5,205 nucleotides of DNA from a virus (taxonomy: Duplodnaviria; Heunggongvirae; Uroviricota; Caudoviricetes). Below, one piece after another: positions 1 through 290 of this stretch (position 1 is the stretch's first letter; every line of letters begins with the position of its first letter). The stretch covers positions 1-5,205 of the IMG/VR virus record IMGVR_UViG_2693429662_000020; one strand, written 5' to 3'. Made by a program: the position numbers and the translations under genes. The notes below the pieces were generated by a model. That model did not search any database. It worked only from the letters and a program-made list of their open reading frames with translations, and was not told the origin of the DNA.

Positions 1-290
1 TCTGAGGCAGCACCTGGCACGGCTGGGACGGAAGTCGCTGTCGTTCTCAAAATCGGTGGAGCTGCATGACAAAGTCATCGGGCATTATCTGAACATAAAA
101 CACTATCAATAAGTTGGAGTCATTACCACCGTCGCCTTCTCATATCTGGCATTCTCAATTCCAAGGGAACAGATGCAATCAACGCTGGCATCAATCCAGT
201 TTGAATCATGCAATCCCAAATGGTCTCAGGAACAACAAGACTCTTTCAGGCGGCTTGCTGTATTACTGGATGAAAAATATGCTGGTAAAA

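Follow-up and report, generated by a model that had tools for sequence, protein, structure and literature searches.

A prophage lysis cassette that looks truncated at a contig end is probably interrupted by IS1

Does the prophage represented by IMG/VR record IMGVR_UViG_2693429662_000020 lack the endolysin with which its pinholin is expected to act? The window, by which we mean the whole stretch of 5,205 nucleotides that was analyzed (positions 1 to 5,205 of that record), carries on its minus strand an intact gene for an S21-type pinholin followed by an intact ydfR (DUF1327) gene, and no further minus-strand gene before its left edge (Table 1). Pinholins form depolarizing, nanometre-scale holes that release SAR endolysins, with which they are usually paired (PMC9239132); the pinholin of this prophage is assigned by sequence. 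An earlier sequence-only reading, which identified both of these genes correctly, concluded that the lysis cassette looks truncated, and proposed either that a spacer and then an endolysin follow beyond the window or that the module has decayed. We favor, at a probability of about 0.9, the explanation that the window is a whole contig, ending in an IS1 copy within a native 343-bp spacer, and that a cassette with intact coding sequences would be interrupted there, its endolysin lying approximately 0.83 kb farther to the left. This explanation uses one close relative, L004, as a proxy for the window's own assembly (GCA_001284585.1), together with two other assemblies in which the same IS1 junction is found.

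Table 1. Features of the window and of the region expected to its left; coordinates prefixed L004 are those of the close relative L004.
Feature	Position	Strand	Details
IS1 left end	beyond window		reads …CAGCATCACC, …AAGTTGGCAGCATCACC
Expected order past IS1 left end	beyond window		GGCGACGGTAAGGGTATTCACG… then lysozyme start ATGAACGCAAAAATCAGATACGGC
Lysozyme (R)	L004:13693-14226		177 aa; ATG 831 bases left of window position 1
Rz	L004:14869-15336		PF03245, 7.5e-50
Rz1	L004:15089-15274		embedded in Rz in an alternative frame; PF06085, 1.7e-21
IS1 right end	1..127	+	PF03400 match and loss of homology at 127/128 in IS1-free relatives
ydfR-proximal part of native 343-bp ydfR-lysozyme spacer	128..290	.	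comparison with L001 and L003
IS1 target-site duplication, one copy	128..136		ACCGTCGCC in window, GGCGACGGT on other strand
phrog_2411 remnant	128..325	+	codons 26-90 of a 90-aa ORF; PHROG match 1-90/90, 1.1e-58
ydfR (DUF1327)	291..635	-	114 aa, intact; PF07041, 7.3e-43 over residues 1-111
S21-type class II holin (pinholin)	640..855	-	71 aa, intact; PF04971 'Bacteriophage P21 holin S', 9e-33, profile positions 1-63 of 64
NanS-p-like SASA carbohydrate esterase	1006..2862	-	618 aa; DUF1737, SASA and DUF6645
IraM-family anti-adapter gene	3123-3458	+	NCBIfam PRK09919, 4.7e-48
sRNA STnc100	3484-3673	-	Rfam RF02076, 132 bits
IS186, complete, 1,337 bp	3866..5202	-	inserted in prophage tRNA-Arg(UCG), upstream in the same late-operon region
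InsL-like DDE transposase	4036-5154	-	PF01609, 1.6e-26

The left edge of the window lies 127 bases into an IS1 element. Plus frame 2 encodes the last 36 residues of InsB (positions 2-109, with the stop codon at 110-112; PF03400 DDE_Tnp_IS1, 2.5e-16), and the IS1 terminal inverted repeat occupies positions 105-127, ending at base 127 and reading GGTAATGACTCCAACTTATTGAT on the minus strand. When positions 1-1000 were compared by megablast with 5,426 complete E. coli genomes, 677 of these matched 128-1000 at up to 99.9% identity; among the matches listed, every best match began at base 128, and none covered the full 1-1000. Because homology starts at 128, bases 1-127 belong to the right end of IS1, which meets prophage DNA at 127/128. 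At this edge the sequence-only reading had described two short open stretches, one from a minus-strand ATG at 76-78 and the other in plus frame 1, running from base 1 until a TGA at 67-69; both occur as reported, but they are non-coding frames within IS1. That reading was right that the prophage is disrupted by IS elements, given its IS1 and IS186 insertions, and right in its coordinates, although it did not recognize the IS1 end at 1-127.

The closed minus strand between positions 80 and 290 also proved real and is readily explained. The three frames contain 4, 6 and 3 stop codons, the longest minus-strand ORF is 37 aa, and the ATG at 295-297 opens an ORF of just 23 aa (226..297, minus strand). 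Nevertheless, these 13 stops in approximately 210 bp compare with approximately 10 expected by chance, so that closed frames over this many non-coding bases are at chance level and the pattern is unremarkable. The spacer is 343 bp in IS1-free relatives (L001, L003 and L012) and in phage Chlobot, and a layout with a spacer of approximately 340 bp occurs in 1,034 of 5,426 complete E. coli genomes, counted as those covering at least 80% of a 1,050-bp probe. Since a spacer without a minus-strand gene is thus a common native layout, a closed minus strand is normal at this place. The other 180 native spacer bases (189 with the second copy of the IS1 duplication) lie beyond IS1, outside of the window, and a scan of positions 1-290 at the Rfam gathering thresholds found no non-coding RNA family.

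The nature of the window itself accounts for the place at which it stops. It is the exact reverse complement of the whole 5,205-bp draft contig CYDN01000127.1 (assembly GCA_001284585.1; locus L011), and its right edge lies 3 bases past a complete IS186. Short-read assemblers are unable to bridge multi-copy repeats, here one of 768 bp, and their contigs normally end at multi-copy IS elements. Hence this contig ends in IS1 because short-read assembly cannot cross it, and the cassette appears truncated because the contig end falls inside IS1. The window does not differ in this respect from the standard artefact of short-read assemblies, in which contigs break at multi-copy IS elements, and sister drafts with the same junction also end within IS1, at varying depth. 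We also considered whether the 127-base IS1 overhang, which equals a common maximum assembler k-mer, might itself prove an assembly artefact. This argument was dropped because the sister drafts end at 97 and at least 318 to 351 IS1 bases, and because the opposite contig end sits 3 bases past a whole IS186.

What lies to the left can be read from L004 (GCA_040813315.1), which is located on a 5.29-Mb contig, agrees with the window at 5,203 of 5,205 bases (99.96%; 2 mismatches), has both IS elements and extends past both window ends, window position 1 being L004:12862. Comparison with the IS1-free relative L003 revealed that the IS1 insert is 768 bp in L004 and in the two other assemblies that bridge it (L005 and L006), that no flanking DNA was lost, and that a 9-bp direct duplication, GGCGACGGT, which is present in single copy in L003, flanks the element in all three; these properties indicate a simple transposition. 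The window has one copy of the duplication because the other lies past the contig end. In the same three assemblies, the ends of the element read GGTAATGACTCCAACTTATTGAT… and GGTGATGCTGCCAACTTACTGAT… (the inverted ends are also given as GGTAATGACTCC… and GGTGATGCTGCC…), which fits an element of approximately 768 bp with imperfect terminal inverted repeats of approximately 23 bp. In the L004 copy both reading frames, insA (91 aa) and insB′ (167 aa), are intact. When compared with NCBIfam transpos_IS1, InsB′ reaches 145.6 bits (1.8e-42), which exceeds the 100-bit cut-off, and InsA, at 91.3 bits (7.5e-26), falls just short of it. In its 768 bp, its insA/insB′ organization and its 9-bp duplication the element is an unremarkable member of the IS1 family, and only its insertion site is particular.

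The insertion was found in a small group of assemblies. A megablast search with window positions 1-260 recovered the IS1/spacer junction from none of 5,426 complete RefSeq E. coli genomes, so that the source lineage is absent from that collection. Forty bases spanning the junction had no exact match in genome_contigs or viral_contigs, a result of no informative value given that GTDB includes one genome per species. The identical junction is present in nine assemblies (L004, L005, L006, L010, the window's own L011, L019, L020, L021 and L024), which implies that the insertion has persisted; all three assemblies that bridge IS1 contain a simple insertion, and all six drafts end inside the element. 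Among these nine, only the window and L004 also contain the IS186 insertion, from which it follows that the IS1 insertion is the older and IS186 the younger, and that L004 is, of the assemblies available, the closest proxy for the genome of the window. Comparison of L004 with L005 shows IS186 to be 1,337 bp long, to have inverted ends and to be accompanied by a 13-bp duplication, GGGTTCAAGTCCC. It sits in the T-arm of tRNA-Arg(UCG), a remnant of which is found at approximately 3840-3865. The tRNA array of the IS186-free L005 reads Met(CAT)/Arg(TCG)/Arg(TCT), and the Arg(TCG) call is lost in L004 and in the window.

Past IS1 in L004 come 189 bp of native spacer, in which the second copy of the duplication is counted, and then the lysozyme gene; its product matches PF00959 (1.3e-23) and shares 95-97% identity with 'lysozyme R' from Stx1a-converting and related Escherichia phages. 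SAR endolysins are recognizable in sequence by an E-X8-D-X5-T triad together with a weakly hydrophobic N-terminal stretch (PMC9239132). In the L004 protein the motif begins at residue 35 (EGNHTTAYRDGAGIWT), its E35/D44/T50 align to the same positions of the phage 21 R structure (PDB 3hde), and residues 7-26 (YGLSAAVLALIAAGAPAPDI) contain Gly, Ala, Ser or Thr at 10 of 20 positions, with a best 19-residue Kyte-Doolittle mean of 1.74. The lysozyme beyond IS1 is, by these sequence criteria, an R21/933W-type SAR endolysin, so that the pinholin would have the partner that the sequence-only reading expected for it. The spanin genes follow approximately 2.0 kb to the left of window position 1, and the N terminus of Rz1 (…LVVSAC) includes a lipobox-like Cys. 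At the DNA level, R, Rz and Rz1 do not differ between the IS1-bearing L004 and the IS1-free L003, nor do the first 3.6 kb past IS1, from R through Rz/Rz1; only 19 differences occur over the 8.3 kb compared. Genes for terminase, capsid and portal come after Rz/Rz1.

Of the two proposals made from the window alone, an endolysin beyond the edge after a spacer was right in substance, while a decayed module finds no support in genes whose DNA matches that of an IS1-free relative. The sequence-only reading had also held that an intact endolysin and Rz/Rz1 pair within a few hundred bp of the left edge would argue against truncation; in essence this is what extension through L004 uncovered, at approximately 0.8 kb instead, because the remaining 641 bp of IS1 intervene. 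In all likelihood, then, the cassette is interrupted, and is neither truncated nor decayed.

Some further observations concern the region beyond the endolysin. Between this gene and Rz (L004:14304-14867) are three small ORFs, some of which have hydrophobic stretches; they correspond to phrog_6632, phrog_4906 and phrog_3246, of unknown function. From position 16756 on, L005 (CP146555.1) and L004 no longer align in register, suggesting an indel close to the small terminase gene; the gene for the terminase small subunit is not called in L005 near this position, which may reflect an assembly error or a real lesion.

The only gene that is physically broken by IS1 lies within the spacer itself, on the strand opposite to the lysis genes. 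Phrog_2411 is convergent with ydfR, overlaps it by 35 bp, and is annotated as a 90-aa ORF in L001 (WP_000369850.1); the full gene occupies L003:12538-12810 (minus strand). Neither Pfam nor NCBIfam gave a match to this ORF, which is recognized by PHROGs alone, with no function assigned. IS1 cuts it after codon 25, and an in-frame ATG at 173 leaves a 50-aa plus-strand ORF (173-325), which gene calling reports for the window's contig as well as for sister drafts, and which was omitted from the sequence-only reading. In three variants that are 11-14% diverged in DNA the phrog_2411 frame is open, with pN/pS of 0.3-0.4 and with differences concentrated at third codon positions; one other frame has a low ratio, but it is antisense, shares the wobble positions and is closed by stops. 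This small sample provides modest evidence that phrog_2411 may be a real gene. The ORF is frameshifted in L016 and L018, by 1-bp and 2-bp deletions, and it is therefore probably dispensable, unless these frameshifts are sequencing errors. The same two relatives lose homology 4-14 bases past the IS1 site, and a recombination hotspot was considered on this account and rejected, since the alignment contains small deletions only.

The remaining genes of the window are those of a lambdoid, Stx-phage-like prophage. YdfR also matches phrog_406 (4e-68) and is labeled 'YdfR family protein' in relatives; a literature search on DUF1327/YdfR function yielded nothing useful, the results being almost all on the melanoma cell line YDFR. 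The pinholin has two hydrophobic stretches and two start codons, Met1 and Met4 of MYQMEK. The antiholin S71 of phage 21 begins MKSMDK, with an extra lysine, whereas the 71-aa form encoded here gains no extra lysine. The holin frame is also open upstream to an ATG at 931-933, giving a 97-aa ORF (640-933, minus strand), and relatives annotate the 71-aa form. Upstream of the holin gene in the same late operon is the esterase gene, whose exact 618-aa product occurs on at least 24 contigs; this form starts at the second Met, and no exact protein match to the 623-aa form was found. The iraM and STnc100 genes lie between the tRNA array and the esterase gene, a region in which Stx phages carry stx, and in phiSTEC1575-Stx2k the order is stx2AB, then iraM, then holin and ydfR.

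Three other explanations must be weighed against an interrupted but complete cassette. IS1 copies can give rise to deletions or inversions next to them, and a contig that stops in IS1, with the visible sequence ending there, is also what would be seen if an adjacent deletion or IS1-IS1 recombination had removed the endolysin and Rz/Rz1 from this particular strain, as genuine truncations or replacements at the same spacer in L002, L017 and L022 might encourage one to believe. We nonetheless consider such a deletion improbable, because L004, with both IS elements and near identity over the whole window, contains a simple insertion with R, Rz and Rz1 intact, because L005 and L006 likewise contain simple insertions, and because six independent drafts end inside IS1, as repeat collapse yields without any deletion. 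There is practically no chance that positions 128-290 are the remnant of a decayed endolysin gene with stops in the former R frame. The closure of all three minus-strand frames might have suggested it, but this segment matches, at 100% identity, the spacer of relatives whose lysozyme gene is intact and lies 343 bp past ydfR, codes for phrog_2411 on its other strand, and shares no part with the lysozyme gene; the alignments to the relatives' spacer thus rule it out.

The remaining alternative concerns function and is compatible with the cassette being complete: IS1, together with the upstream IS186, may lower expression of R, Rz/Rz1 and the structural genes through polarity, leaving the prophage lysis-defective without the loss of any gene. 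IS1 insertions are classically polar in either orientation, in L004 both elements are situated after the Q antiterminator gene and before R, the insertion persists in nine assemblies, and a weak terminator-like hairpin is present inside IS1 on the strand of the late transcript (L004:13363-13377). On the other side, Q-antiterminated late transcription of lambdoid phages reads through terminators, and between R and Rz the native cassette itself has a strong terminator-like hairpin (15-bp stem; L004:14317-14349) through which late transcription normally has to proceed, so that read-through of the IS copies is expected. Moreover, downstream decay is not seen, and the native 189 bp upstream of R, with its translation signals, are kept. 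We regard a polar lysis defect as possible, though on balance doubtful. No usable paper on IS1 polarity and antitermination came out of a literature search.

Our preferred reading, that of an intact cassette interrupted by IS1, leads to the following proposal. The cassette would consist of the S21-type pinholin gene, ydfR, the spacer, the gene for an R21/933W-type SAR endolysin, three small ORFs and Rz/Rz1, and IS1 would have transposed into the 343-bp ydfR-endolysin spacer. Gene order in L004 runs from a Q-type antiterminator gene (PF03589) through a 65-aa ORF, a DNA methyltransferase gene, the tRNA array with its IS186 insertion, iraM (on the opposite strand), and the esterase, pinholin and ydfR genes to IS1, R, the small ORFs, Rz/Rz1 and terminase; because both IS elements are located between the Q gene and R, late transcription must cross IS186 and then IS1. 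The polymerase modified by the Q protein of lambdoid phages resists terminators, and antitermination classically relieves IS polarity. We propose that, upon induction, the Q-modified late transcript would extend through IS186 and then IS1 into R and Rz/Rz1, the terminator-resistant polymerase being expected to read through both elements, and that membrane depolarization by the pinholin would still set the SAR endolysin free, although the endolysin dose may be lower. We think it rather unlikely that IS1 uncouples the pinholin-ydfR half of the cassette from the endolysin-spanin half, or that through the loss of phrog_2411 it removes a regulator of lysis timing, so that lysis would be altered or abolished. 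If phrog_2411 did modulate lysis by pinholin and SAR endolysin, this would provide a function for a common, uncharacterized cassette gene.

What was found is an ordinary IS1 insertion together with a contig-end artefact. A contig edge in a repeat can mimic gene loss, and calls of a 'missing partner' should be checked for IS ends before anything else. The IS1 hit is biologically routine for a prophage. The interest that remains lies in the location of both IS186 and IS1 within the late operon of a Stx-phage-like prophage that is otherwise intact, and in a ydfR-endolysin spacer that holds a conserved, uncharacterized opposite-strand gene, which IS1 has knocked out.

Genuine truncations or replacements of the cassette do occur at this spacer in other strains, and the scenario of a decayed module, although it lies outside this lineage, is real elsewhere. 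In E. coli AR_0069 (L002, 3296-4198), lom and tail-fibre genes come directly after the spacer ORF, and in L017 and L022 (approximately 3300-4463) unrelated genes abut it. Phage phiSTEC1575-Stx2k (L013, 1285-3303) has the class II holin gene, ydfR and phrog_2411 followed by a second holin-gene pair and a gene for an M15 metallopeptidase, with no R-type lysozyme gene at that place; this arrangement indicates that S, ydfR and the spacer ORF move together as one block, which is joined to more than one kind of endolysin module.

Compared with known systems, the cassette is closest in its parts to those of phages 21 and 933W, with which it shares a 71-aa, two-start holin of the P21 S family and the arrangement of Rz1 within Rz; in the L004 lysozyme, the positions of E35, D44 and T50 correspond to those in phage 21 R, and a weakly hydrophobic N-terminal stretch is present. 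It differs from them in having ydfR and the opposite-strand phrog_2411 between S and R, in the three small ORFs between R and Rz, and in the IS1 element that splits S-ydfR from R. The Qin prophage of E. coli K-12 (essQ-ydfR-rrrQ-rzpQ) displays the same order of holin, YdfR, lysozyme and Rz-like protein (annotations H45 and H46). Gene order is also the same in the O55:H7 form (L015), but there the gap between ydfR and the lysozyme gene is just 50 bp, versus 343 bp in the window's lineage, and O26:H11 (H40) gives the same shortened match. Phrog_2411, which is present in the 343-bp spacer of the window's lineage, is absent from the O55:H7-type cassette.
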